Below are positions 4,424 to 61,114 of a stretch of 64,000 nt of DNA, piece by piece. The notes under the pieces are model-generated. The model was not told where the DNA came from and did no database searches. It worked only from the letters and a program-made list of their open reading frames with translations. The stretch comes from a virus. Within the stretch, counting starts at the first letter, position 1. Each line of letters opens with the position of its first letter. The position numbers and the translations under genes were made by a program. The stretch lies in IMG/VR virus record IMGVR_UViG_3300037245_003639. One strand, given 5' to 3'.

Positions 4424-4451
4424 GTGTATACGATTCAGTAAGAAATGTCAA
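4424..4451 (-). promoter_or_regulatory. sigma70-type promoter (TTGACA with a TACACT/TATACA -10)
   Basis: cccTTGACAtttcttactgaatcgTATACAct, with a spacer of 15-17 nt depending on which -10 is used. Confidence 0.45.
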
Positions 4452-4535
4452 GGGAAATAGGAAGCCCCGTCCGTGATGTTATCCAAGCCGTTTCTCCCAG
4501 AGCGGGATTGAAGTGACGGACGGGGCTCATGGGAT

Positions 4536-7814: not shown

Positions 7815-8194
7815 TTCTTCCCTTTCTTGATAACCCGCTTAATCTCGAATTCTGAGATGAAACAAATCTCAGGCCCAATAGAACCACGATCAGGCAGAGC
7901 AGGGTCTCCTCTTCGGGCCTTGCAACCCGCAGCCCCCTCAGCGATGGCGTCTGTCAAATGGGCAGGCGTCAGTTCGGCCCAAAACCGCCAACCGCATTCT
8001 TCGTCATACCAGCCCTTGACGATGGTTACGTGCCATTCTCGATGCTCGTCAAAAACAATGGTGCCACCAGCTTTATTGTAGCCACAGATCATTCCTTGGG
8101 CTGCGACTAAATCACCCAGTTTGAAGCGGCAATGATCCAAATCTGTGCAAGTTCCCATTTTATCCCCAAATCCATTTGAGGGCCGACAATACAA
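7811..8194 (-). CDS. hypothetical protein
   Basis: 127-aa ORF. Confidence 0.4.
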   Translation of the reverse strand: MYCRPSNGFGDKMGTCTDLDHCRFKLGDLVAAQGMICGYNKAGGTIVFDEHREWHVTIVKGWYDEECGWRFWAELTPAHLTDAIAEGAAGCKARRGDPALPDRGSIGPEICFISEFEIKRVIKKGKK

Positions 8195-8438
8195 ACGTCG
8201 TACCCGCCAGCCCCGATATTACGCAAAGAAATACTATGCTGGCCACCACTTTCGGGGAATCAGGTGCATATATGATTTCATAAGAGGCATGCGGCGAGTG
8301 CAGAACCGCTTCGCCTGCACACCTGAGAGCAATTTGAGCATCTGGCGTCAGATGACGGAATTTCACTGAATGGACGCTGTGGGTTTCCTTGTATCGCTTC
8401 CGAATATCACCGGGCACATACAGCTTCAAGTCCATCAC
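8160..8438 (-). CDS. small membrane protein
   Basis: C-terminal hydrophobic segment VVASIVFLCVISGLAGTTFVL. Confidence 0.35.
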   Translation of the reverse strand: MMDLKLYVPGDIRKRYKETHSVHSVKFRHLTPDAQIALRCAGEAVLHSPHASYEIIYAPDSPKVVASIVFLCVISGLAGTTFVLSALKWIWG

Positions 8439-8791
8439 TTTGACTCCAGTTGTTTTTCAGCCTTGTCTATCTTCTTGAGTTCTACTGCGATTTTCTGACG
8501 AGCCCATTCGCCATTGGCTCCATCAACAAACTCGCGGCAGAGTTGCATTACTTTATCCCTCCCGCGTTCCACTTTCGTATGCAAGTTCCAACGCAGGTCT
8601 TGATCTTTACTCTCTGCCTCCCATTTGGCGCTCCGCGCAGCCCTTCGTTTCTCGACTAGACTCGGAGCATGTTGCCAACAATAGAACTCTCCACCCTCTT
8701 TGATTGTGCCTGTCCGAATACACTGGTGATCCCACGGACCACTCAACAGGGTTGGGCTACTACATTGCGGCTTGTCTCTTTCGCGGGCCAT
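8435..8791 (-). CDS. hypothetical protein (leaderless mRNA)
   Basis: The ATG at 8791 lies 6 nt downstream of the -10 of promoter 8798..8826. Confidence 0.5.
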   Translation of the reverse strand: MARERDKPQCSSPTLLSGPWDHQCIRTGTIKEGGEFYCWQHAPSLVEKRRAARSAKWEAESKDQDLRWNLHTKVERGRDKVMQLCREFVDGANGEWARQKIAVELKKIDKAEKQLESK

Positions 8792-8797
8792 AACGGC

Positions 8798-8826
8798 AAT
8801 ATAGCCGTTTACCGAAAGATTGTCAA
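8798..8826 (-). promoter_or_regulatory. sigma70-type promoter (TTGACA-17-TATATT)
   Basis: ccTTGACAatctttcggtaaacggcTATATT. Confidence 0.6.
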
Positions 8827-8865
8827 GGATTTTAGAGGGAGTGTTTCAGGCAGCGAGAACGGCAT

Positions 8866-9147
8866 TCAGATGCGTACATGCGGGGCTATCTCGGTCTTGA
8901 CTTCAACGATATTGACGATGTTGCCGCGTGAACGGCCTGTTGGACCAAAGGAATTAACCCAGCTCTCAATATGGGCTTCGGTGGTCGAGGGACTTTCCAG
9001 CAGTTTCTTTGCCCCTTCTTCATTCTCAAGGATTGTGTTGTTATTGTTCTCTTCCAGCAACACGCGGAGGAGAGCGAACAGGTTGGCAAGGCTATATTCA
9101 TACGCATTGACATGGCCGTTGCTGTCTTGGATGATGATTGCTTTCAT
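8866..9147 (-). CDS. hypothetical protein
   Basis: ORF 8866..9249 trimmed to the MKAII start. It lies directly downstream of the U-tract terminator of ncRNA candidate 1. Confidence 0.4.
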   Translation of the reverse strand: MKAIIIQDSNGHVNAYEYSLANLFALLRVLLEENNNNTILENEEGAKKLLESPSTTEAHIESWVNSFGPTGRSRGNIVNIVEVKTEIAPHVRI

Positions 9148-9160
9148 CGTTCGTCTCGGA

Positions 9161-9446
9161 GAAAAAAATCTGCCATGATGCCGACTTACTTTGACTGTCT
9201 GCGAGCTACCGCTCTTGCGTGCTTCCGTTACACCACACCACATAAACACAATATATGCGTCTCATGGATGGACGGATTCGAACCGCCATTTCCAAACCAT
9301 CAAGACGGCGACTACGGAATCGAATCGCAGGAAGTTGGCGCTGCTGTGTAGCCGACCGCATTGTCTGCCGACAATGGGCGGGGTGGCCCTTCCTGGCGAT
9401 ATCCGTCCAAGGCCCGCTCATGGCTTCGACGGGCAGCCGTGTCTCA
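9161..9446 (-). ncRNA. structured small RNA candidate 1 (tRNA-like T-arm module)
   Basis: Promoter 9453..9481 predicts a start near 9446. The transcript contains GGCGGTTCGAATCCGTCC, a T-arm-like hairpin. A 7-bp long-range helix TGGACGG/CCGTCCA (+ coordinates 9403-9409 and 9269-9275) encloses about 141 nt, and there is an internal hairpin CATTGTC-GGCA-GACAATG. It ends with GATTTTTTTC (+ coordinates 9161-9170). Confidence 0.4.
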
Positions 9447-9452
9447 CTCAAT

Positions 9453-9481
9453 TTTATATCGGATAGCAGCCAGATTGTCAA
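9453..9481 (-). promoter_or_regulatory. sigma70-type promoter (TTGACA-17-TATAAA) driving ncRNA candidate 1
   Basis: cccTTGACAatctggctgctatccgaTATAAA. No ORF lies downstream for about 290 nt. Confidence 0.6.
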
Positions 9482-9647
9482 GGGAAATCTCAGACGACGG
9501 GAGCGGAGGGGTGGTCTATCATTGACGAGGCATCCCACGTTCATCGGGCCTTGCGAGCCCTCCAGTGGGCGGTATACGTCCTCTTCCACCTATTACTTTG
9601 CACTCCGCTCTTTCAGCAGCGTCCTGCCTAGTCGCCCGACCATGGTT

Positions 9648-10736
9648 TCACTTAGTTCGATACCCTCTACGAGCCTTCGTATTCACAGGCAGATCCGGTC
9701 TCACCGTAGTCTGCCCGAAAAACATCAACTTCACCATAGCTTTTCCTGGCCCGTGCCTGACCCAATGCCAGTGGGCTCCCCGCTGATGTTGGAAACTCAA
9801 TACTGAGCCATCTCCTGGCTCTCCTGAGCCCGTCTGACAGCCCGGAATGACGATTTCCCGCCCCATAGTCCAACCATGCTTGTGATTTCGTATGGCTCGG
9901 CTAATGATGCGCTCCTGAATCTCGGTATCTTCTTTTTGCTTCGCATCCAAATAGCGAAGTAGGTCTCTGTTTAGAACGTCACATTCGACGATTTTGTCTC
10001 CACCCGTGGCGAGAAAAGTTACGGCGACAGCAATCCTGTAACAGGCATCGATAACCGTGAGCGGGATGGGGATTCCACCATTAGCGACGCAATTGTCTTT
10101 GATATACAAACCCTTCTCTATATTCTTGCCCAAGACTTCTTCAACTGTCTGGGTCTCATCAGAGAACAACAACTGCTGATACGTAAGAATCGGATACTGC
10201 TGTTCCCCCATCGGCTCAAGTTCATTCACGTCTATAAAGATGATGATTTGGCGGAATTCACCCTCTACCACGCCCCCTTGAGGATTGCCGAATACTAACC
10301 CTGGATGCTTGCCTTGTTGATCACCGCCAACCAGGATGGTTCGAACGTAATGATTATCATCAATTTTAAGAACATCGACATTGTGTTCTTTAGGCAAGCG
10401 AATGATAAAAGCAGGAAAGGGTAAACGGAAGTATTCCGATGGAACATCCAGTTTGGTAGAGACAAAATACGGAAGCAAATCAGGATAAATTTTGTAATAG
10501 GGTCTCCGGTTCAGTTCCCAACTTCTCTCGCAGGTGTATTGGATATTGCCGAGAGTTGGTGTAAGCGTCTGCTCTATTGTAGCCTGCCCTCGTTTCTGGG
10601 CGTCAGACGACCTTAGAGCATCAGCAACTGTTCGTTTCAGCTCCTGATCATACCAATCGAGGGCAGACAGGGAAGTTCCCTTAAGCCGACGTATCAGATC
10701 GTAGATAGAAAGATATTCGTGAAATTCCATATGCAC
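9648..10736 (-). CDS. hypothetical protein (362 aa)
   Basis: Long clean ORF, no confident motif. Confidence 0.5.
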   Translation of the reverse strand: MHMEFHEYLSIYDLIRRLKGTSLSALDWYDQELKRTVADALRSSDAQKRGQATIEQTLTPTLGNIQYTCERSWELNRRPYYKIYPDLLPYFVSTKLDVPSEYFRLPFPAFIIRLPKEHNVDVLKIDDNHYVRTILVGGDQQGKHPGLVFGNPQGGVVEGEFRQIIIFIDVNELEPMGEQQYPILTYQQLLFSDETQTVEEVLGKNIEKGLYIKDNCVANGGIPIPLTVIDACYRIAVAVTFLATGGDKIVECDVLNRDLLRYLDAKQKEDTEIQERIISRAIRNHKHGWTMGREIVIPGCQTGSGEPGDGSVLSFQHQRGAHWHWVRHGPGKAMVKLMFFGQTTVRPDLPVNTKARRGYRTK

Positions 10737-10761
10737 AATCTAACAGGGGACAAGCAGAATG

Positions 10762-11577
10762 TCAAGAGCGTCTTCGCAACTCTTTGATTCCTTTCCAGAT
10801 ACCGACAAGGAATCCTATCCATACCCCAAAAGAAAACGCCCATCCGGTGGGTGTAAGTTCTGCTTGAAACAGACTGGCAGAACCGACCTTCAAAGTAAAA
10901 GCAGATGCAGTCTTCATGTCAAGCGAGCCAAAACTAAGAGCGTAAAGAATTAGCAAAATAGCCACGCCAAGAACGGCTCCGGAGGCGGTGTAGAATAACC
11001 ATGCCCCCAAACCGTTGGATAGTCGTCGTCCGAGGGTCTCTTTTGGTTGCCCGATAATCAGGATCTTTTCTGTTTCATCCATTTTTCTCTCCGTTGAAGG
11101 TTCAGGAGTATAACTCGGAACCCGGTCGTTCAGAATCCATCGGATAACTTTTCGCTGCCTGTCTGCGATATGATACTGAGTCCGCAGAATCGCCTCCAAA
11201 TGTCCTGTATCTGCGTCTTTCAAACGAATCCAACGTAACGGCCCAAGACCATCCTCGCCCATCGTTCCCCATAAGGCACAGTAAGCCAGTTCCTCAATTG
11301 TAGGATTATGAGTGACTAACGTTGCATTGGCTTCATTGACTTCATTGACCCCGTGGGTCTTATCAAGGTATTCAGGGCAGAACGCAGGATGATACAAAAT
11401 GACCCATTTATCTTCGGGAACATATCCTAACTTGATGGCCTCAGGAGCATAAACGCGGAAAGTTTTGTCTGCGACTCTGCAAAGGATATCTCCGGTGCCG
11501 GCGTGAGCGGGATCATCTACTTTGCAAACTCTACCCGCAGCGATAGCTGGCTGTCCGTATTTGTGGTTCGTTCTCAT
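10762..11577 (-). CDS. membrane-anchored hypothetical protein
   Basis: Soluble N-terminal part of about 180 aa, followed by 2-3 C-terminal TM helices. Confidence 0.45.
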   Translation of the reverse strand: MRTNHKYGQPAIAAGRVCKVDDPAHAGTGDILCRVADKTFRVYAPEAIKLGYVPEDKWVILYHPAFCPEYLDKTHGVNEVNEANATLVTHNPTIEELAYCALWGTMGEDGLGPLRWIRLKDADTGHLEAILRTQYHIADRQRKVIRWILNDRVPSYTPEPSTERKMDETEKILIIGQPKETLGRRLSNGLGAWLFYTASGAVLGVAILLILYALSFGSLDMKTASAFTLKVGSASLFQAELTPTGWAFSFGVWIGFLVGIWKGIKELRRRS

Positions 11578-11852
11578 TGGGTTTTACTCCGCACAATATT
11601 CCCGCCTTGCTTCACCACTTCTCCCGTTCCAGCCGCAGTATCACTGATACGTTCGGGCGAAGGCACCGTGCTCACTGTTATCTGATCGGCTTTCTCGTCC
11701 AACGTTTTACGCATCAAGCCACTTTGGAGAACTTCCTCATACCAATAATCAGGGTAATCGCCAAGAGCGGCTTTCACCTTGTCGCAGTTTTCATTCCACT
11801 CTTCGAGGCTGCGACTACTGGTCATCAGTTGAAGAACTTCTTCTTTGGTCAC
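11574..11852 (-). CDS. hypothetical protein
   Basis: 92-aa ORF overlapping its neighbours by 4 nt at both ends (operon-like coupling). Confidence 0.45.
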   Translation of the reverse strand: MTKEEVLQLMTSSRSLEEWNENCDKVKAALGDYPDYWYEEVLQSGLMRKTLDEKADQITVSTVPSPERISDTAAGTGEVVKQGGNIVRSKTQ

Positions 11853-12136
11853 AGTCTTACTCCCCGAAGGAACTTGAGACTATCGATAAACCAAGTCTTC
11901 TGGATGAGACGTTCCTCCGTGTCAGTATCCTCACCGTGATTCTCATCCATCAAACGTGCCACTATCTTTTTGATGGTGTCGAGATCCCTGTCAGGCGCGA
12001 CGATAGCGAAGGTAGTATTGCCCGTGAAAGTGGGTATAGTCCTATTTCTCTCGTGCTTGCGTTGCGAGGGAAAGTCAGAAATCATAGACCACTTAACTTC
12101 CACTTCAAACAGAAACTGTTCGTTCCGCTCGGGCAT
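11849..12136 (-). CDS. hypothetical protein
   Basis: 95-aa ORF. Confidence 0.45.
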   Translation of the reverse strand: MPERNEQFLFEVEVKWSMISDFPSQRKHERNRTIPTFTGNTTFAIVAPDRDLDTIKKIVARLMDENHGEDTDTEERLIQKTWFIDSLKFLRGVRL

Positions 12137-17621: not shown

Positions 17622-18494
17622 TCAACTGGAAGGACCATCTCCCCAACGAAATTTCGTAACTAGGTTATGCCAACGGGGATAATGGGGATTCTGCATGATT
17701 AGAGCGCGTTTCCGAGCGCTCCGCACTTCAAGAATATCCTGTGCATCAAGGTTAAAAACGTCCTGCCCGTCAACGACAACATCTGTTCCTTCATTGACTC
17801 GGACTGCCTCGATACGGATTTGGCTGTCAGCATCCACCACGATCGGGCAACAGTCAAAGGAATGGGCGTTGAGGGGATTGAGGATGATTCCTGGCATTCC
17901 AGGCATCATTACGGGGCCATGAGCGGACAGATTGTACGCTGTAGAGCCTGTAGGTGTCGCCACAATAATGCCGTCCCCACCGACCGTAGCAAGCTCGATA
18001 CCGTCCACAATCAGCTTTAGATAGACCATACGATGCGGGGCGCCAGCGTTGATAACCACGTCATTCAGCGCCCACTGCCACGGTCTCCAATCGCCCAGCT
18101 TGCCTTGAATCCGCATTTGCAGCATAAGTCGCCGTATAATGTTCGCATCTGTGAGTTCTGGCAGTAACTCTTTCAATTCCGCGACTGAAAAAGCGGTCAG
18201 GAATCCGACCTTGCCGAAGTTGACACCAATCAGCGGAACCTGACGTTCTTCCAACTGGCGGGCCACTGACAACATGGTTCCATCACCACCCAGAACGACG
18301 ATGCGGTCTGCATTGTACTTTGGCAAATCGCCAATAGTGAACTTGGAACCCTCCCCAACGGAGTCTACACAGACGAGTTCTCCAACAGACTTTACCAAAG
18401 CCAGAATTTCTGGGAGAGCATCTTGAACTTCTTGCTTCATGAGATTAGAGACAATTGCATATTTCATAGAGTTGCACTCGTGGGATGTTGCCAA
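17622..18494 (-). CDS. nadK: NAD+ kinase
   Basis: GGDGTMLSVARQ, NDVVINAG and DGIIVATPTGSTAYNLSAHGP are the diagnostic NadK/PpnK motifs. Confidence 0.8.
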   Translation of the reverse strand: MATSHECNSMKYAIVSNLMKQEVQDALPEILALVKSVGELVCVDSVGEGSKFTIGDLPKYNADRIVVLGGDGTMLSVARQLEERQVPLIGVNFGKVGFLTAFSVAELKELLPELTDANIIRRLMLQMRIQGKLGDWRPWQWALNDVVINAGAPHRMVYLKLIVDGIELATVGGDGIIVATPTGSTAYNLSAHGPVMMPGMPGIILNPLNAHSFDCCPIVVDADSQIRIEAVRVNEGTDVVVDGQDVFNLDAQDILEVRSARKRALIMQNPHYPRWHNLVTKFRWGDGPSS

Positions 18495-23735: not shown

Positions 23736-25145
23736 TTAATCTTCGGACGTATCATCGTCCGACATTTTCACCAGTCGGGGATGGAAACAAGCGATAATGT
23801 CCACAAGGTCAGTCTGAGCGTCCATGACCTTCAAAATGTCTTTATACGCTCCTGGGACTTCATCCAATCCCGCGGAAATTAGTTTGACATTCCGGTGTCG
23901 TAATTGTTCTCGGACATCAGACCAGCGATACTTTTCCTTAGTTTTTGTTCTGCTCATCGCCCGCCCCGCACCATGCGATGCCGACGATAATGATGCAGCG
24001 TTACCTTTTCCCCGAACAAGAAAACCAGGCGTTGCCATTGAGCCCGGAATGACCCCTAGAACATCCACCCCAGCGGGAGTCGCCCCTTTGCGATGGACAA
24101 TCACAGTCCTGCCATCGTGTTCCTCTCGCCACGCAAAATTATGATGGTTCTCTACCTGTAGCAGAGCATCCCACCCCAATTCACGCAATACATGATAGTG
24201 AATCAGATTATGGTTTGCTGATGCATACTCTCCAGCGAGTTCCATCGCCTTCCAGTAAGCTATGCCATCTTCATCATCCATCGACAACCACGCCAGCCTT
24301 TTATACTGAGGCGGCAGCAAGGGATGTTTCGCTCCTGCAACACGGGTGAAGTGATTGGCCACCTTCGACCCAAGCCCGCGAGAACCGCTATGCGTCAAAA
24401 TGGCTACATACTTACCAGGAGGAACATCTCCAAATTGCTCAGTGAACTCTATTTCACCAACATCGAGGAAGTGATTCCCACTGCCTGATGAACCAAGCTG
24501 ATTCCACGCTCTGTCTTTATCCACAATCCCATCAAGGATAGACCAGTCCCGATCCATTACTTCGTGCTGGCGACGACCTGAACGTTGGAATGCGGCTCCC
24601 AGACCAAAGCGGGTATGCTTCTCGATTGCTTTCGTGATTACAGTTTCTTGCTGCTTGATGGGGTCTCCAGCCGTATCGATGGGGACCACAGATAGCATCA
24701 TGCGACATGCAATGTCTACGCCCACACCATAAGGCATGACAGCATTGTCCATAGCGAGCACGCCACCGATTGGCAAACCATAACCAAGGTGAGCGTCCGC
24801 ACATAAAGCCCCTCTTATCGCAGGCGGAATACTCAGAGCGCGGTTCATCTGATCGATGGTATTTTCATCGATGAAGTCTTTGCCCCAAATGGCTAAGGGC
24901 TTATCTTCGCGGAATGTATACAGTTCTTCTGGGTGGAGAATATTGTACCATAAAGACGCCGCTTCGCCAAAGTGCGCATCGCTTCGTAAAGATGCTGGGT
25001 TGCTAAACAACTCGCGAGCAATCTTCTTGCGAGTTTCAGCACCAACTCCTGCTGTCTTCGCGGATTCCTCGGCTTTCAGCAAAACACCAATCACTGGCCC
25101 TTGCTTGAAGCCAATATTGAGCAATCCTCGTGCCTTGAGTCCCAT
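23736..25145 (-). CDS. rtcB: RtcB-family RNA ligase
   Basis: Diagnostic ENHHNFAW motif, the HNLIHYH stretch, and overall length and composition consistent with 3-phosphate/5-OH RNA ligase. Confidence 0.8.
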   Translation of the reverse strand: MGLKARGLLNIGFKQGPVIGVLLKAEESAKTAGVGAETRKKIARELFSNPASLRSDAHFGEAASLWYNILHPEELYTFREDKPLAIWGKDFIDENTIDQMNRALSIPPAIRGALCADAHLGYGLPIGGVLAMDNAVMPYGVGVDIACRMMLSVVPIDTAGDPIKQQETVITKAIEKHTRFGLGAAFQRSGRRQHEVMDRDWSILDGIVDKDRAWNQLGSSGSGNHFLDVGEIEFTEQFGDVPPGKYVAILTHSGSRGLGSKVANHFTRVAGAKHPLLPPQYKRLAWLSMDDEDGIAYWKAMELAGEYASANHNLIHYHVLRELGWDALLQVENHHNFAWREEHDGRTVIVHRKGATPAGVDVLGVIPGSMATPGFLVRGKGNAASLSSASHGAGRAMSRTKTKEKYRWSDVREQLRHRNVKLISAGLDEVPGAYKDILKVMDAQTDLVDIIACFHPRLVKMSDDDTSED

Positions 25146-30312: not shown

Positions 30313-31257
30313 TTATCCAAAAAAGTCATCGGCGTGGATGAATTGGAATCCGCATCGAGAGGCGAAGGTGCGATCTGTCGTCTGATCCCCCACCATTATT
30401 GAGTCACTCGGGGACAGGTTATGTTTCATAATGAACTGGACGCCCAATCCGCTCATTGGTTTGCGACAGTAGCAGTTGATGGGAGCAGGGTTATGAGGAC
30501 AGTAGGCATACTCAATGTCTACCTGGAGCTTCCTATTCGTAATATCAAAGCAAGCTCTAGCTTGCTCATCAGTTGGGCTCCCCTTGGCCACTCCGCTCTG
30601 GTTGCTGACGCCGAGTAAGGCGTAGCCCTCTTTTTCATACTTACGCAGGACAGCCGCCCGCCCTGGAAGAACCACAACTTGCTTCGGGTCTGTAGGCCAC
30701 TTCAACTCTGCCCCATTAGTATCTTCGCTTACCCGGAGAGTGCCATCGTAGTCCAAGATGATAGCGGCGTTCGTCCACTTTGCGGGAAAGCCCCGCATAA
30801 ACGGTCGCCTGTCAACTCGATGGAAGCCCTCAGCTACAGTGGGCGCCTGGAACTGCTTGCGGTAATTGAACAACACAGCAGTGGGAAACATATTTGGGCT
30901 GGAATGCTTTTTGATTTCCTCAGGCATCAACAGTCTGCCTTCACGCTCGATCATCCGCACGCAAGCGTTGAATTGAGCGTCTTCGATGGTGGCTGTGAGC
31001 CAGTCACAAATGACTGTAACATCGAATTTTTTGGCAGCCTCAAGGAAGGGTTTGCGGCTCTCGACTGTAGGGAAGGTGTTGTCGAGAACAACGTCTTTGC
31101 CCGCTTTGAGAGCGGCCACCATCTTGGGAACCAAATCAGCTACTTTGCCCCCGGCCTTATCTCGATTGAGATAGACAAAACCCTGCTCTGTATAGGCCGA
31201 GGCGATTGAGGACTTACCCGCAGCGGGATAGCCCATTACCATAACGACTCGTGGCAT
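30313..31257 (-). CDS. pnkp: T4-type polynucleotide 5-kinase / 3-phosphatase
   Basis: N-terminal P-loop GYPAAGKSS (kinase) and C-terminal ILDYDGTL (the DxDGT HAD-phosphatase motif), in the same order as T4 Pnk. Confidence 0.7.
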   Translation of the reverse strand: MPRVVMVMGYPAAGKSSIASAYTEQGFVYLNRDKAGGKVADLVPKMVAALKAGKDVVLDNTFPTVESRKPFLEAAKKFDVTVICDWLTATIEDAQFNACVRMIEREGRLLMPEEIKKHSSPNMFPTAVLFNYRKQFQAPTVAEGFHRVDRRPFMRGFPAKWTNAAIILDYDGTLRVSEDTNGAELKWPTDPKQVVVLPGRAAVLRKYEKEGYALLGVSNQSGVAKGSPTDEQARACFDITNRKLQVDIEYAYCPHNPAPINCYCRKPMSGLGVQFIMKHNLSPSDSIMVGDQTTDRTFASRCGFQFIHADDFFG

Positions 31258-31264
31258 CAGATTC

Positions 31265-31489
31265 TCACGTTGCAAAGTAGATGACGACAGTAACGACAGT
31301 AATCAAAGCAGCTAGTCGAACGTAGATGCGGGCTTCCATGCCATTCACGCCATTCACGCCATTCACGACTTCCGCTCGCAGTTTCTCGTAACAATCCGGA
31401 CTAATGTCGCCGTTGGCAAGAGCTTCGGCAAAATGCACCGTGTGGCCCGGTGACTGTATCGTCTCCGCAATCAGCTTCTGGCTGTCCAT
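31265..31489 (-). CDS. hypothetical protein
   Basis: 74 aa with a C-terminal TM segment. Confidence 0.35.
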   Translation of the reverse strand: MDSQKLIAETIQSPGHTVHFAEALANGDISPDCYEKLRAEVVNGVNGVNGMEARIYVRLAALITVVTVVIYFAT

Positions 31490-32190: not shown

Positions 32191-32219
32191 ATCATACCAT
32201 ATGTACCTGAGACTGTCAA
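32191..32219 (-). promoter_or_regulatory. sigma70-type promoter (TTGACA-17-TATGAT) driving the tRNA-like RNA
   Basis: ccTTGACAgtctcaggtacatatggTATGAT. Confidence 0.65.
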
Positions 32220-32234
32220 GGGAAATCCTGAGTG

Positions 32235-47164: not shown

Positions 47165-49861
47165 TTAGATCAACGGTTCTTCAGGCCCAGGCCCAGACAC
47201 TGGCATACCTGGATGAAGCGTCGGCCCAGGCCCTTGCTCTGCTATCGGAATGCCAACATTACGTGGATTACGAACAACCTGGCGCAATTGCTCCCAGAGT
47301 TCCTCGTCATCTTCATCCCAATCACCATCATCCTCTTCCATTTGATTGAAACCAAGCTTTATTCTGTCTTGGAACTCATTGCGATGACGATCAAAGAGTC
47401 TAAAAGTGCGTCCGGTATCAAGTTTTTTGTGACTAATGATGTCCAAAGCAAACAATTTGCGAATTTCTTCCATTTCCGCGAAAGTATAATCTTTTGTGCG
47501 TTCGGTCAGATCGCTTATATCCAAAACGCTCAACATGTCCTGTTGGAACCTCTCTGTAATAAACTGCGTCCGTAGTTTCTCTCCCGGGGCAGAGAATGGC
47601 AGCCACAGGTCAATACGCCCTGGACGCACAAACGCTTCATCCAATTCAACCATTTCGTTGGCAGTAAAAACGAAGACGATTCCTTCGGTCGGATAGATAC
47701 CATCCATGTTCGTCAGGAAGGGCAGAATCTCATAGTTGCCTGTCTTCCGATCTTTGATCATTACATCCAAATCATCAAAGAAGACAATAGCCGAACGATT
47801 GCGGGGCGGCGTGAATAACTGCCGAACTGAACCATGCCGTCTGACATCTTCATATTCTTCAAGCGTTATTACTCGATGGTAGAATCCATGTTCAATGGCC
47901 AGATTTCGCAGCCATTTGCAAGTCATCGTGTTATGATTTATAAAGCCACCCGCAGCGAAGGAGTGAGATTCTGGCACATAGAAGTCTGCGACAAAGTTCT
48001 GCGCAGAAACGTTGCTTTTGACCTGATCCCAGAAAATATCACCGCGAGCAATATTCCGCATTCTCGCAAGAACTTCTTTCCCAATTTTAGTTTCATCTAC
48101 AAGTTGAAGAAGGCGTTCAGACTTTCCATGAGACATTCTCTGAGTTCCGTCCTTGTATCTCTGGAACTCAGCGTGCATTCGACGATTGAAATTGCCACTT
48201 AATTTACATACATCTCTGAGCAAATCTGGATCATAGGGCACAATATCATAATTAGTGTTATACTTTTTCTCCTGGAATCTGATTTGTTTCCGTGCCACGC
48301 GGAATCCGATTTCGTCGAAGAAGCATTTAGCCTCCTTGCCATTTATATCTATAGCCCAAGCACCGTTATAATCATTGGGCTTATGACGCAATGATGAGAT
48401 AATACCAAAGTTGGTGAGCATCAGATGGACTGTTCGAGCTAACTCCTCAGAGTAGGAGTCAAAACCAACTCGACCCGTTGTATCTGCCCACCCGTCAGTA
48501 TCAAACAACCCCTGCAAAAACGCTCTTACACAGTCTTGCGGAGCCTCCAAAATACAACGTGGAACAGATTTTTGACATGCTCCCGCAGAACCAAGACCCA
48601 GGAGTTTGAGGAATCCTTTGATCTGAACGCTTTCAATGGTCACCGAAGTCAACCCATCGCGTCGTTTATCATCCTGCACATGAGGAGTTACCGAGAAGAG
48701 TCTGGAGAATAAAGCCACATATTCTCTCTCTAAGTCCGCCGTGGAGAATGCGATTCTGTTCTTGGTAGTTAAATTACCATCACCAGTAAGTAACCCCAGA
48801 AGATATGCGAGATCATCATCGAGAACAGATGGCAAGGAAACAGGGAGCCTACCAGAAGCCGTATGAGCATACGAGATATCTGTTTTGTACCCGAACAACA
48901 TCATCTTACGAGGAACAGCTACAAAATCGCCCTCTTCAATCTCGTCTAGCCTTTTCCATGTAATATCCTGTCCATCTGTTACAATGACGCGATGATTCCA
49001 CGTTCCTTCAAGTTGATAGCCAAAACGAGTGCTTATCTTTTTAGTGTCTCGCCATCCGCCATTGTAAATTTGGGCAGTTTCTTCTCGATGGCCATCTTTA
49101 TTCCATATAGTTACTGACTTGTCTGTGGCGTCATCAACTGCAAGATCTTCTATAAACTCGCCAATAGGCAGCAACCCGCTATTTGTAAATACAGGAGTAT
49201 CAAGAGAACAGCACTTTCCACATCCGGGTTTTCCGCACAACAAGGCTCCCCGTTTGTAAGGAATGTTGTACTTATCGTATTGGGCCTTCTTCTCTTTACC
49301 ATCCACTAGAAAACCAATAGTGTTTTTGTAAATATCAGTCAACATTCCACGAGGCAGGACAGGTGGTTCCAAGTTAGTAGCAGAGTGCTTCTCAATCTTC
49401 CTGGCGAATTTACGTAGACTAAAAAGGTTCCGTTTCTCCACAAATATGGAGAAACTAAGGGGATGATCGTCGAATTCACCGTTCCAATGCCAAAAACGAA
49501 CGGAATCACGTTCTCTTTGTGGACGGTTACGCTGATCAGGATTGAAGATAACGTATTCCCGCAACCCTACATCATAGCGGTCATACCATGAGCCATCATG
49601 TAATGCTGCCTGGGTTTGAACTATAAGTTTACCTTTTCCCTGGTCCTTTTTAGGCAACATTCCCATGGGCATGTCAATAGCGACAGGAATTCGCCTGATA
49701 TGTTTGACATCACGGGTTTCTTTAGAATTAGTAAGCTTGAGGCTTGCAGAAAATCTGCACATACAAAGGTCATCTTGTGAGAAGTCATATTCATCACAAA
49801 GGGCCTTAACAGCATATGCAAAAACAGCTTCGGGGTACTCAGGTTCAAAAACCATATTCAA
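47165..49861 (-). CDS. AAA+ ATPase (classic-clade type) interrupted by an intein
   Basis: The Walker A motif GKPGCGK|C...HN|T is split. The second region of homology is FTANEMVELDEAFVRPGRIDL. Acidic C-terminus. Confidence 0.7.
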   Translation of the reverse strand: MNMVFEPEYPEAVFAYAVKALCDEYDFSQDDLCMCRFSASLKLTNSKETRDVKHIRRIPVAIDMPMGMLPKKDQGKGKLIVQTQAALHDGSWYDRYDVGLREYVIFNPDQRNRPQRERDSVRFWHWNGEFDDHPLSFSIFVEKRNLFSLRKFARKIEKHSATNLEPPVLPRGMLTDIYKNTIGFLVDGKEKKAQYDKYNIPYKRGALLCGKPGCGKCCSLDTPVFTNSGLLPIGEFIEDLAVDDATDKSVTIWNKDGHREETAQIYNGGWRDTKKISTRFGYQLEGTWNHRVIVTDGQDITWKRLDEIEEGDFVAVPRKMMLFGYKTDISYAHTASGRLPVSLPSVLDDDLAYLLGLLTGDGNLTTKNRIAFSTADLEREYVALFSRLFSVTPHVQDDKRRDGLTSVTIESVQIKGFLKLLGLGSAGACQKSVPRCILEAPQDCVRAFLQGLFDTDGWADTTGRVGFDSYSEELARTVHLMLTNFGIISSLRHKPNDYNGAWAIDINGKEAKCFFDEIGFRVARKQIRFQEKKYNTNYDIVPYDPDLLRDVCKLSGNFNRRMHAEFQRYKDGTQRMSHGKSERLLQLVDETKIGKEVLARMRNIARGDIFWDQVKSNVSAQNFVADFYVPESHSFAAGGFINHNTMTCKWLRNLAIEHGFYHRVITLEEYEDVRRHGSVRQLFTPPRNRSAIVFFDDLDVMIKDRKTGNYEILPFLTNMDGIYPTEGIVFVFTANEMVELDEAFVRPGRIDLWLPFSAPGEKLRTQFITERFQQDMLSVLDISDLTERTKDYTFAEMEEIRKLFALDIISHKKLDTGRTFRLFDRHRNEFQDRIKLGFNQMEEDDGDWDEDDEELWEQLRQVVRNPRNVGIPIAEQGPGPTLHPGMPVSGPGPEEPLI
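47930..49213 (-). mobile_element. intein (about 428 aa) with a LAGLIDADG homing-endonuclease domain, inserted in the P-loop of the AAA+ ATPase
   Basis: It starts at Cys217 (CSLDTPV) and ends FINHN followed by Thr. It carries two LAGLIDADG motifs (LLGLLTGDGNL and LQGLFDTDGWA). Excising it restores GKPGCGKT. Confidence 0.65.
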
Positions 49862-59457: not shown

Positions 59458-59486
59458 TTGACAATCTTCCGAAAACTTGGTAATCT
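59458..59486 (+). promoter_or_regulatory. sigma70-type promoter (TTGACA-17-TAATCT)
   Basis: ggcTTGACAatcttccgaaaacttggTAATCT, then ggagatcctgcATG. Confidence 0.6.
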
Positions 59487-59512
59487 TCCGTAGTGTCAAT
59501 CGGAGATCCTGC

Positions 59513-61114
59513 ATGGCTACCAAACTTGGCAGAAAAGCGTATCCATCTGGCGTCAGCCCAGGCGATTTTGAGTGCTTTGGCCCAGTTGCTACAAAAGATG
59601 GTGAATTCGACGACGCCCGGCTCGCTGACCTGGGATGTTTCAACCAGGAAGGCGTAGATTCCAACAAATATTACCATGGGTCCATATGTAAAGCGAATGG
59701 CAAGTGGTATGTATACTTCCAGTGGGGACGGACGGGAGGCACGGGTGATTTCCAGTTCTTCGAGTGCTATGATGAGCATGATGCTCAGGAACAGTTCACC
59801 AAACAACTACGCTCGAAGAATGATAAACGGGGTGAATGGGTGATGAAAGGGGGACTCGGCAAAGTCCTCCGGGCCAAGCCCAATAAAGACTGCTATTTGG
59901 TTCGCCCGCTGGCTACCCGAGACGATACCAGCCCTGGATTGCCAGGAGCAATTGCTGTTACCACAGGTGACGTGAAGGTTAAGAAGACCGTCAAGAAAAC
60001 ATCGAAGAAGAAAACGAAAACTCCGTCTCGCACTTTCGATGCTGAAACGATCAGTCTCATGCGAGCAATGAATGTTGCTGCCGTCCAGTTTACAAAGAAA
60101 AGCATCCAAGGCGGCACCATTCCCACGCAAGCGTCTATCGAGGAAGCCCGAACGGTTCTTATCGAAGCCCAAAAACGGCTGGTCGTTGTAGGCGACAACG
60201 TAAAATCCCAAATCGCTGATACAGAGCTTCGCCAGTTGACCTATCACCTGTACGGCAGGGTTCCCAAAATCAAGCGGGTAGGAGCCCCCGAGAGCGAGTG
60301 GATTCTAAGCCAGGATAACATCTTTACTTGGACCGCTGACTTGGATGCGTTCGAAAACGCTCTGGCCGTTGCTACAGTCGAAATCGAGGAAACCCAAACT
60401 GACAAAGACCCGCTCGGTGGGATGAAGATCGACATGCGGCACCTGCCTCTCGGTGACAAGCAAGGTGATTTCATCCGTAAATGGATGCCTGACGCTTCGC
60501 TTGACCGCCATTCGTGGGTTGGGGACATGAAGATCAAACATGTTTGGGAAGTCACTCGCCACGATGACCCCAAACGATTTGCTGGAGCTATTGACCGAAT
60601 CACTAAGGGGCGAGTGGACACAAGGCATAAGCCAATCAAACAGCCCCGAAAGCGAATCGACTTGGACACTCAGGAAGCCAAGCGTTACGAGGCTGCCAAT
60701 GTCGGAATGCTTTTCCACGGCACTCGTAGCGTCAACGTCCCGGGCATCCTGCGCACAGGATTGCGTTTACCCAACCAACTTGTTGGCGTCGTCATTACAG
60801 GAGCCATGTTTGGCCCTGGTATTTATTGGGCTGACGACTGGAAGAAGAGTGCGGGATACACGAGCCTCAGTGGTTCATACTGGAGTTCTGGCAGCGGCGG
60901 GGTGCGCGGTCGCAAAGCATTTATGTTCGTGGCCGACGTTGCACTTGGGACTGCCCACGTAGCAAACGGATACCGTGGTTATACGGCGGCGCCAAGGGGC
61001 TGTCACTGTGTTTTCGGGAAAGCGGGTAGTAGCGGAGTTGCAAATAACGAGTGGATCGTCTATACTAACGAGCAAAATCGTCTTCGCTATCTCGTGGAGT
61101 TTGATGCCAAATAG
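59513..61114 (+). CDS. WGR-domain poly(ADP-ribose) polymerase-like protein
   Basis: WGR motif WYVYFQWGRTGGTG. The catalytic core LFHGTRSVNVPGILRTGLRLP...AMFGPGIYWADDWKKSAGY...NEWIVY parallels the PARP1 H-G-S / GKGIYFAD / YNEYIVY triad. Confidence 0.75.
   Translation: MATKLGRKAYPSGVSPGDFECFGPVATKDGEFDDARLADLGCFNQEGVDSNKYYHGSICKANGKWYVYFQWGRTGGTGDFQFFECYDEHDAQEQFTKQLRSKNDKRGEWVMKGGLGKVLRAKPNKDCYLVRPLATRDDTSPGLPGAIAVTTGDVKVKKTVKKTSKKKTKTPSRTFDAETISLMRAMNVAAVQFTKKSIQGGTIPTQASIEEARTVLIEAQKRLVVVGDNVKSQIADTELRQLTYHLYGRVPKIKRVGAPESEWILSQDNIFTWTADLDAFENALAVATVEIEETQTDKDPLGGMKIDMRHLPLGDKQGDFIRKWMPDASLDRHSWVGDMKIKHVWEVTRHDDPKRFAGAIDRITKGRVDTRHKPIKQPRKRIDLDTQEAKRYEAANVGMLFHGTRSVNVPGILRTGLRLPNQLVGVVITGAMFGPGIYWADDWKKSAGYTSLSGSYWSSGSGGVRGRKAFMFVADVALGTAHVANGYRGYTAAPRGCHCVFGKAGSSGVANNEWIVYTNEQNRLRYLVEFDAK

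Follow-up and report, generated by a model that had tools for sequence, protein, structure and literature searches.

The DNA analysed here, a 64-kb stretch of the virus record IMGVR_UViG_3300037245_003639 (the window), covers only part of a phage genome; it resembles part of a large phage, and most of its genes are on the minus strand. Directly downstream of an AcrVA2-like gene (9648-10736, minus strand), assigned by Pfam to the anti-CRISPR family PF26125, lies a predicted RNA of about 285 nucleotides (nt), the long locus L1 (9161-9447, minus strand), which is followed by a small gene at 8866-9147. A second RNA, the short locus L2 (32098-32184, minus strand), was recognized by sequence reading, a covariance model and folding. 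L1 and L2 are members of the known YrlA / Y RNA-like class of bacteria and phages and do not constitute a new kind of element. They are placed in this class by the permuted order of their modules, which was overlooked in the original prediction of structured RNAs at the two loci.

Signals and ends of L1

All strings quoted in the original prediction were present, once each, in place and on the minus strand. At L1, string search located ATGGCGGTTCGAATCCGTCC at 9289-9270, the perfect hairpin CATTGTC-GGCA-GACAATG at 9376-9359, GGTGTAACGG at 9234-9225, the U-run DNA GATTTTTTTC at 9170-9161 and the promoter TTGACA-N17-TATAAA at 9481-9453. Both ends of the RNA are predicted from the promoter and the U-run. 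The -35 hexamer TTGACA (9481-9476) belongs to a promoter box, GATTTCCCTTGACA (9476-9489, minus strand), that is identical to the box 5' of L2. The -10-like TATAAA (9453-9458, minus strand) begins 17 nt past TTGACA, and an alternative -10 sequence, TAAAAT, is found at 9456-9451 with a 19-nt spacer. The promoter proposed earlier was thus confirmed as a string but not in strength, as TATAAA lacks the conserved final T and the promoter was not called by a consensus scan.

The GAUUUUUUUC run (9161-9170, minus strand), read from the sequence and found by string search, is the presumed 3' end of L1. The next gene, which is on the same strand, starts 14 nt further on with the codon at 9147. Only the U-run of the terminator suggested for this site was borne out; a canonical hairpin precedes the U-run at neither L1 nor L2. 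The gap had also been described as free of credible open reading frames (ORFs). ORFs do overlap both RNA loci, and at L1 they do so on both strands, but none has a Pfam or PHROGs family match at E<=0.1. An antisense ORF of 183 aa, called by a gene finder on a Logan contig, was rejected because it has no family match and no homology to the reverse gene found at the same position in the nearest relative. In annotation, the RNA gene replaces this spurious gene call of about 180 aa. A blastn search with positions 8000-12000 against 50,697 phage records returned no match.

Permuted tRNA-like core of L1 and L2

In both RNAs the 5'-to-3' order of modules is T-arm, closed acceptor-like stem-loop, U-G and D-arm. 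The T-arm of L1, GGCGG-UUCGAAU-CCGUC (9271-9287, minus strand), was detected by sequence reading, string search and the covariance model R1 described below. It is followed by the closed acceptor-like arm (9236-9270, minus strand), in which CAUCCAU pairs with AUG(U)GGUG to give 7 bp and one bulged U, extended by a hairpin from the 20-nt loop. The U8-G9 linker and the D-arm GUGU-AACGGAA-GCAC come next (9219-9235, minus strand; D-arm 9233-9219). Upstream of the T-arm, a 13-nt equivalent of the variable loop (9288-9300, minus strand) ends in U, which corresponds to U48, the partner of A15. It is preceded by the 5' strand of an anticodon-stem equivalent, CCGUCUUG (9301-9308, minus strand), which pairs with 9217-9209 in folding and in the centroid structure; the 3' strand found by folding is CAAGA(G)CGG (9209-9217, minus strand).

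The core of L1 is a circularly permuted mimic of transfer RNA (tRNA), in which a loop closes the acceptor-like stem, so that there is no free CCA end, and in which pairing of the flanking sequences stands in for the anticodon stem. In L2, the same part is played by pairing of the two ends of the RNA. The residues that form the elbow and the L-shape are present in L1, namely G18 and G19, the UUCGAAU T-loop, U8, A14, and A15 with U48. Both RNAs have a T-arm with a U-U-C-R-A-N-N loop and a G53-C61 closing pair, and both have a closed acceptor-like stem between T-arm and D-arm, with 7 of 7 pairs in L2 and 7 pairs plus a bulged U in L1. Both also have a D-arm with A14, G18 and G19 and a Levitt-type 15-48 partner, which is A15/U48 in L1 and G15/G48 in L2.

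The strings quoted for L2, ATGGCGGGTTCGAATCC (32174-32158), GGTGTAGCCGG (32136-32126) and GATTTTTTTC (32107-32098), were likewise located by string search on the minus strand. This RNA is closed by an 8-bp stem of GUGGGAGA (32184-32177) with UCUCCCAC (32118-32111). A variable region of 5 nt, AGAUG, separates GUGGGAGA from the T-arm GCGGG-UUCGAAU-CCUGC (32171-32155), after which the closed acceptor stem UCGAUCC-AUA-GGGUCGG (32154-32138) forms 7 bp around the 3-nt loop AUA. The UG linker and the D-arm GUGU-AGCCGGGA-ACAU (32135-32120) are followed by A, UCUCCCAC and the U-run. The minimum free energy (MFE) structure of L2 recovers the closing stem, T-arm and acceptor stem (z = -2.55). The L2 promoter, GATTTCCCTTGACA-N17-TATGAT (32191-32227, minus strand), has 11 of 12 consensus matches and a TG extension, and a small ORF follows the RNA after about 40 nt. 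A separate observation concerns the acceptor-like stem of L2 (32138-32154, minus strand), where G3:U70 and an A at the discriminator position make up the alanine identity set of tRNA-Ala and transfer-messenger RNA (tmRNA). The G3:U70 pair occurs in only 6 of 21 related phage RNAs, and its occurrence in L2 may be due to chance.

The relationship between the two loci held up under a proper alignment. Their local score was 33, against 16.4±2.6 in 500 dinucleotide shuffles, none of which reached 33. The best local block, of about 30 nt, is GAA-ATGGC-GGTTCGAATCC...CCAT. In the window, GATTTTTTTC occurs at the L1 and L2 sites only, and the identical 14-mer GATTTCCCTTGACA precedes both RNAs; at up to 2 mismatches, this box has 4 matches in the window, where 0.57 would be expected. 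The proposal of a kinship between L1 and L2 as structured RNAs, with insertions in the longer one, is upheld by their common ordered module and by their being the sole two window matches to R1. Compared with L2, L1 has an inserted domain of 95 nt, a variable region of 13 nt instead of 5 nt, and an acceptor-like loop of 20 nt instead of 3 nt. A third copy of the promoter box, TATTTCCCTTGACA (4446-4459, minus strand; 13 of 14 positions matching), lies ahead of a small protein-coding ORF, which indicates that the box is a phage promoter class serving both RNA and protein genes.

Related RNAs and the covariance model

Relatives were retrieved from IMG/VR with a permuted pattern running from T-loop to D-arm. 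At least 120 contigs matched, mostly at junctions of tandem tRNAs, against which Chen et al. (PMC4201824) likewise warn. Among the 31 matches outside tRNAs called by ARAGORN, 20 had at least 6 of 7 closed-acceptor pairs, with about 0.4 expected by chance. Covariation marks the closed acceptor stem in 21 IMG/VR members, with 3 of 147 pairs non-canonical. In the D-stem of these 21 RNAs, GUGU invariably goes with GCAC or a slightly different sequence (GCAU, ACAC). The family also shows covariation between positions 15 and 48, A15 being accompanied by U48 in 13 of 15 cases and G15 by G48 in 5 of 7, and both L1 and L2 follow this rule.

R1 was built from 8 IMG/VR RNAs and run on the whole window with filters off. 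It scored L1 at 33.3 bits (E = 6.7e-7) and L2 at 23.5 bits (E = 2e-4), the next best match reaching 6.6 bits; the search for further copies suggested earlier therefore ended, over the 64 kb, with these two RNAs. Elsewhere, R1 gave 58.3 bits for an IMG/VR contig (L314), 39.9, 29.2 and 17.6 bits for RNAs of a Terracidiphilus contig (L180), and 43 and 35 bits for RNAs in metagenome-assembled genomes (MAGs) of Planctomycetota. ARAGORN detected no tRNA and no tmRNA gene in the whole window, and Rfam at gathering thresholds returned nothing there, tRNA included, so the L1 and L2 matches are not tandem-tRNA junctions. L1 was also rejected as an ordinary tRNA, since its arm order is permuted, it has no anticodon loop, and it was found neither by ARAGORN nor, at the gathering score, by the Rfam tRNA model.

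In a permissive Rfam scan, the best hit of L2 (211-nt search) was the full YrlA model RF02553, with 26.2 bits (E = 7.6e-4), and the alignment places the T-arm, acceptor-like stem and D-arm as read. The same scan of L1 at E<=10 yielded noise and a 7-bit match to beta_tmRNA (E = 5.7, threshold 84) over the stretch of T-arm, loop and D-arm. With the YrlA model, which has a threshold of 69 bits, relatives scored 27.2 (L180), 26.8 (L205), 41.4 (L288) and 40 bits (L077). Family members, Ro60-adjacent ones among them, are thus lost at this threshold. Because related RNAs, including Ro60-adjacent L180, are also below threshold, a score under the Rfam cut-off says little against membership.

The two Planctomycetota MAGs L178 and L205 contain RNAs with GGCGAAUG, a 7-bp acceptor stem and a loop of 16-17 nt; the L1 D-arm GGTGTAACGGAAGCACGC matches those of L205 and L178 at 17 of 18 bases. 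Exact and degenerate DNA patterns specific to L1 and L2 gave no IMG/VR hits. A spacing-constrained search for L1-like RNAs (CGAAG, 120-150 nt, T-loop) returned ordinary family members and tRNA arrays only. Four pattern matches in JGI metagenomes were discarded as coding sequence, a eukaryotic-looking tRNA and tandem tRNAs. Similarly, IMG/VR loci anchored on RtcB or Pnkp were mostly tandem-tRNA false positives, although the YrlA-like RNA of L159 is real.

The putative Ro60-site motif and the predicted fold of L1

At 9424-9430 (minus strand), about 20 nt from the predicted 5' end, L1 carries GUCGAAG, an exact match to the GNCGAAN0-1G motif of the Ro60 site in YrlA. The match lies next to or inside the predicted stem of the 5' and 3' ends; its chance expectation is about 0.18 per RNA (per 285 nt, from 79 occurrences in 128 kb), and it is without covariation. 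L2 does not contain the motif. The GUCGAAG heptamer was also found in the phage YrlA-like arrays L077 and L289.

The basal stem, junction topology and placement of the insertion in L1 are predictions from folding. The 5' strand of the basal stem (9418-9436, minus strand) would comprise either CUGCC and AUGA around a 10-nt CGAA bulge or a 7-bp GCCAUGA helix, and the 3' strand would be UCAUGGCAG (9170-9178, minus strand), directly before the U-run. GUCGAAG accordingly has two placements in the folds, in the 10-nt bulge between CUGCC/GGCAG and AUGA/UCAU or just 5' of GCCAUGA/UCAUGGC. The insertion (9313-9407, minus strand) is a predicted rod-like domain of 95 nt with the helices ACGGA/UCCGU, AUCGC/GCGAU and AGGAAG/CUUCCU and a three-way tip, and it includes the perfect hairpin at 9376-9359. 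Folded alone, it has an energy of -37.3 kcal/mol (z = -3.1), matched by 2 of 200 shuffles.

A fold of L1 that is made to include the T-arm, the acceptor-like arm and the D-arm lies 4.3 kcal/mol above the MFE. When the anticodon-stem equivalent (CCGUCUUG with CAAGA(G)CGG) is added, a Y RNA-like layout of -92.5 kcal/mol is obtained. This layout has a long interrupted basal stem (9424-9405 with 9195-9172) and then a three-way junction, whose branches in the model are the insertion (9403-9322) and the tRNA-like core.

The original prediction had stressed a 7-bp long-range helix, TGGACGG/CCGTCCA. The helix exists and even extends to 9 bp (9409-9401 with 9277-9269), but it does not exceed chance, since 36% of shuffles contain a perfect helix of 8 bp or more. 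As a feature of the structure it was abandoned, for it uses the 3' strand of the T-arm and is mutually exclusive with that arm. Its 5' partner, GGACGGAU, also pairs with a similar UCCGU at 9318-9314 within the insertion. Since this partner is transcribed earlier and closes a stable rod, co-transcriptional folding should favour the rod and the T-arm. A second copy of the T-arm within the insertion was considered (GCGATTCGATTCCGT against GCGGTTCGAATCCGT, 13 of 15 identical) and rejected, as 30 of 500 shuffles score as well. The degenerate T-arm-like string GCGAUUCGAUUCCGU at 9312-9330 (minus strand) may be a trace of a duplicated module, although it is not significant against shuffles.

Comparison with known Y RNAs

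YrlA (Rfam RF02553) is known from Salmonella, Mycobacterium and many other bacteria and phages. Members of the class bind Ro60 and are modified by TruB and DusA. As defined by Chen et al. (2014; PMC4201824) and in a crystal-structure preprint (10.1101/312249), YrlA has a 5' Ro60-binding strand with GNCGAAN0-1G, in some cases a variable stem-loop, and then the T-arm, the closed acceptor-like stem-loop and the D-arm, 'resembling circularly permuted tRNAs'. The elbow residues are conserved and the 15-48 pair covaries; the acceptor arm, the anticodon-stem equivalent and the variable loop vary in size (PMC4201824; 10.1101/312249).

As in YrlA, the variable region of L1 and L2 is followed by the T-arm, then by the closed acceptor-like stem-loop and then by the D-arm; the conserved residues of the T- and D-loops and the 15-48 covariation are shared as well. 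Also, the two ends are predicted to pair with each other, a genome can have more than one such RNA, and RtcB is found in genomic company. A match to the 5' GNCGAAN0-1G is present in L1 only. In contrast to YrlA, no Ro60 gene was found within the 64 kb, and the Rfam score is far below threshold (L2) or there is no hit (L1). The D-stem is GUGU/GCAC with the linker UG, where YrlA has GCUC/GAGC and UA. L1 is about 285 nt long against the 114 positions of the Rfam consensus, owing to the 95-nt rod, the 13-nt variable loop and the 35-nt acceptor arm, and L2 lacks the whole Ro60-binding module.

There is also a close likeness to the RNAs of L314, L071, L180, L205 and L178, which have the T-loop GGUUCGAAUCC, a 7-bp closed acceptor stem, the D-arm UGGUGUAAYGG(C/U)AGCAC and a 5' motif of the GNCGAA type. 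Unlike those of L314, L071 and L180, the RNAs of the window are not beside genes with a TROVE domain. The insertions of L1 are absent from these relatives, apart from long acceptor loops in L205 and L178, and the GNCGAA-type motif is followed by a conserved CGGUUAUC in the phage examples and by CGGGCCUU in L1. The Yrl1 and Yrl2 RNAs of Thermus phage phiLo, in which the stem of the 5' and 3' ends flanks a CGAA bulge, are encoded directly ahead of the phage's Ro60 gene and have been shown to bind Ro60 (PMC12135203). The predicted basal stem of L1 has the same stem-bulge(CGAA)-stem form; this is a likeness in form and not one established by sequence comparison.

In two-piece tmRNAs and permuted tRNA genes, the order of the segments is also permuted, and the RNAs are cut to free a chargeable CCA end; they contain a tag frame (tmRNA) or an anticodon loop (tRNA). 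L1 and L2 resemble these genes in being circularly permuted but have no CCA end, tag frame or anticodon loop.

Ro60 genes and the neighbourhood of the RNAs

Related RNAs were found beside Ro60 genes on two phage contigs and one bacterial contig. In L314 (IMG/VR), the RNA precedes an ORF whose protein has TROVE and vWA_Ro60 domains and matches Rsr of D. radiodurans (PDB 2nvo) at E = 9e-81. A Ro60 gene (TROVE and vWA_Ro60) lies 3.3 kb downstream of the RNA in L071 (IMG/VR), and in L180 the array of elements is followed by a TROVE ORF. In the window, tblastn with three TROVE-domain proteins and one DUF2828 protein gave a best E of 1.3, and the 338-aa, 634-aa and VWA proteins of the window had no Ro60 match among PDB sequences or in PHROGs. 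A DUF2828+DUF7788 protein is encoded 4.5 kb downstream of a tRNA-like RNA on an AT-rich phage contig (L121:7157-8560, plus strand). DUF2828 may be TROVE-related, although the L121 protein itself had no match among PDB sequences.

Pfam identified genes for an NAD kinase (17622-18494), the RNA ligase RtcB (23736-25145, minus strand), a Pnkp-like polynucleotide kinase/phosphatase (30313-31275, minus strand; 0.8 kb downstream of L2) and a PARP+WGR protein (59477-61114). RtcB may be functionally tied to L1 and L2. Homologues of RtcB in IMG/VR usually stand beside large tRNA arrays, and here the gene occurs without any tRNA gene. Homologues of the AcrVA2-like protein reach up to 61% identity in metagenomes, Pirellulales entries included, which hints at a planctomycete host and at an anti-defence neighbourhood; a planctomycete is the probable host of the phage. 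On the contigs of its nearest AcrVA2-like relatives (L001-L009), the T-loop string was not found, and the corresponding gap in L001 holds the reverse gene. The window also encodes a giant protein bearing a lysozyme domain and an AAA ATPase whose ORF (47165-49861, minus strand) is split by an intein bearing a LAGLIDADG homing-endonuclease domain, both assigned by Pfam.

Proposed function and alternative explanations

L1 (9161-9447, minus strand) is probably a non-coding RNA in its own right, of the YrlA / bacterial Y RNA-like type, acting by the mechanism set out here. It would be made during infection from the phage promoter type common to L1 and L2. Its ends may form a basal stem in which GUCGAAG, the Ro60-binding element in Y RNAs, is carried by a bulge or overhang, and the 95-nt rod is modelled between this stem and the tRNA-like core. 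The basal stem and its CGAA motif would dock Ro60, supplied by the probably planctomycete host or by the phage genome outside the window, and the tRNA-like elbow would recruit or occupy a tRNA-recognising factor. Through the phage RtcB and Pnkp-like genes, L1 may be linked to RNA repair and tRNA damage, and L2 would represent the tRNA-like module alone, without a Ro60 site. The presence of RtcB and Pnkp echoes the Salmonella operon rsr-yrlBA-rtcBA (PMC7790460) and thereby suggests a role in conflicts over tRNA damage and repair.

Several observations weigh against this interpretation. The Ro60 partner is missing, no TROVE domain having been detected by Pfam in the window ORFs of at least 400 aa or in 20 further ORFs of 93-357 aa. 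L1 has no Rfam YrlA hit even at E<=10, and L2 reaches 26 bits against a gathering score of 69. The D-stem of L1 is not the GCUC/GAGC of Rfam YrlA, its acceptor-D linker is not the conserved UA, and the conserved YUAY has no clear counterpart. The R1 score is no proof by itself, as values of 22-45 bits are also obtained where tandem tRNAs adjoin in phage tRNA arrays, and it is partly circular, since L1 and L2 supplied the pattern by which the training set was collected. The tandem-tRNA explanation is nevertheless inapplicable to L1 and L2, because the window has no tRNAs and the missing tRNA halves do not flank the loci. The MFE structure of the whole of L1 (-101.8 to -102.2 kcal/mol) has a z of only -1.3 and does not form the T-arm, with which the 9-bp alternative helix competes. 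Logan (SRR11832402) and JGI (3300043172) data also contain this phage, with L1 copies (L167, L168) that are 100% identical, so they supply no covariation for the basal stem, the context of the Ro60 site or the insertion. Finally, the -10 sequence of L1 is imperfect, a local terminator hairpin is lacking, and the transcript ends are predicted.

A rather unlikely alternative is that the same fold works independently of Ro60, the RNAs being decoys or inhibitors of host enzymes that recognize the tRNA elbow or body, or cofactors for the phage RtcB or Pnkp. No Ro60 gene was found in the 64 kb, and L2 has only an 8-bp closing stem and no Ro60-site motif. L1 is directly downstream of a gene of an anti-CRISPR family, the RtcB, Pnkp-like, NAD-kinase and PARP-like genes are nearby, and the phage window has no tRNA genes of its own. 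Furthermore, Hughes et al. (PMC7790460) propose that YrlA could competitively inhibit an anticodon nuclease. On the other hand, L1 has an exact GNCGAAN0-1G at the expected 5' position, related RNAs adjoin Ro60 genes in L314, L071 and L180, and Ro60 may come from the host; also, the RNAs have no anticodon loop with which to mimic the cleavage substrate of anticodon nucleases. The absent Ro60 gene, the motif-less L2 and the adjoining anti-CRISPR-family gene make nuclease inhibition the main rival mechanism. In its specific form, which is more doubtful still, L1 and L2 would be anti-defence tRNA mimics that occupy host nucleases or toxins recognizing the elbow without Ro60, with the L1 insertion as a second binding platform. 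If this were true, the Y RNA fold would extend from a cofactor of RNA quality control to a phage-encoded RNA decoy.

It is improbable that the L1 region serves mainly as a cis-acting leader or processing signal for 8866-9147 and onward, for instance as a punctuation site for RNase P. The L1 U-run is 14 nt before the ATG at 9147, L2 is about 40 nt before a small ORF, and read-through is plausible where no local terminator hairpin exists. YrlA of M. smegmatis, which has a 7-bp acceptor stem, is cut by RNase P (PMC4201824), and the stems of L1 and L2 also have 7 bp. The genes downstream of L1 and L2, however, are unrelated small ORFs without a family match. Relatives occur in tRNA arrays or upstream of Ro60 and not before a conserved gene, and the closest relatives of the AcrVA2-like gene are without the RNA.

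It is a very remote prospect that the locus is what decay has left of two neighbouring tRNA genes, or a phage attachment site of tRNA origin, without function as a permuted RNA. Tandem-tRNA junctions, at 22-45 bits with R1, do dominate the pattern matches in genomes, and the D-arm resembles those of genomic tRNAs called Gly, Gln, Arg and His. However, neither ARAGORN nor Rfam detects a tRNA in the window, and the T-arm has neither a 5' acceptor strand nor an anticodon arm on its upstream side, just as neither an anticodon arm nor a T-arm comes after the D-arm. The interval between T-arm and D-arm pairs 7 of 7 in both loci, with a chance of about 0.001 per locus, the same promoter box and the same U-run frame both loci, and no integrase was seen among the ORFs scanned.

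A two-piece (circularly permuted) tmRNA gene can practically be dismissed: such genes too are marked by a permuted order, in which the 5' acceptor strand comes after the T-arm and the 3' acceptor strand, the weak local beta_tmRNA match exists and L2 has G3:U70 and A73, but ARAGORN, which can detect permuted tmRNAs, finds none, no tmRNA family is hit near threshold (7 against 84 bits for beta_tmRNA), the approximately 55 nt past the D-arm leave no room for pseudoknots and a tag frame, no typical hydrophobic-tag frame was seen, no CCA is encoded, and L1 has G3-C70.

If L1 is a Y RNA-like RNA of the YrlA type, as preferred here, its interest lies in its pairing with L2. Y RNAs of this type are tRNA mimics awaiting their effector partner, and phage copies have been described beside phage Ro60 genes. 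Here, two copies occur in a probable planctomycete phage with RtcB and a Pnkp-like gene, and no tRNA genes or Ro60 were found in the 64 kb. L2 is pared to the bare tRNA-like module, and L1 is enlarged by a stable extra domain. Such a natural pair, the module alone and the module with a Ro60 site and an insertion, could help to separate Ro60-dependent functions from those of tRNA mimicry.

Other related RNAs

Tandem arrays of units, some of which start with GUCGAAG, were observed in the GC-rich contigs L069, L077 and L289. Arrays of 3-5 YrlA-like or T-arm-only units occupy L069:150-900 and L077:1250-1700 (both IMG/VR) and L180:3400-4460 (Terracidiphilus). The units carry a conserved 5' box (GGGUUGAAAGGCNNUCGGUUAYC in L077) and score 23-40 bits with Rfam YrlA, below the curated threshold.

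An AT-rich subfamily of permuted tRNA-like RNAs lies inside phage tRNA arrays (L023, L040 at 2295-2495, L047, L054, L061, L111, L121, L123 and L305). The AT-rich elements of L023, L026 and L113 matched no Rfam family at E<=1. Members of the subfamily have a conserved 5' segment of the form ...UUGACCA...AGGUUCUUUUCAGCAA..., and their acceptor loop, UUGGUCA, is complementary to the 5' UGACCA. The loop and the 5' segment change together, with UCCCA/UGGGA in L032 and L119 and GACC/GGUC in L111 and L123, which suggests that the acceptor loop and the 5' segment of this subfamily form a pseudoknot.

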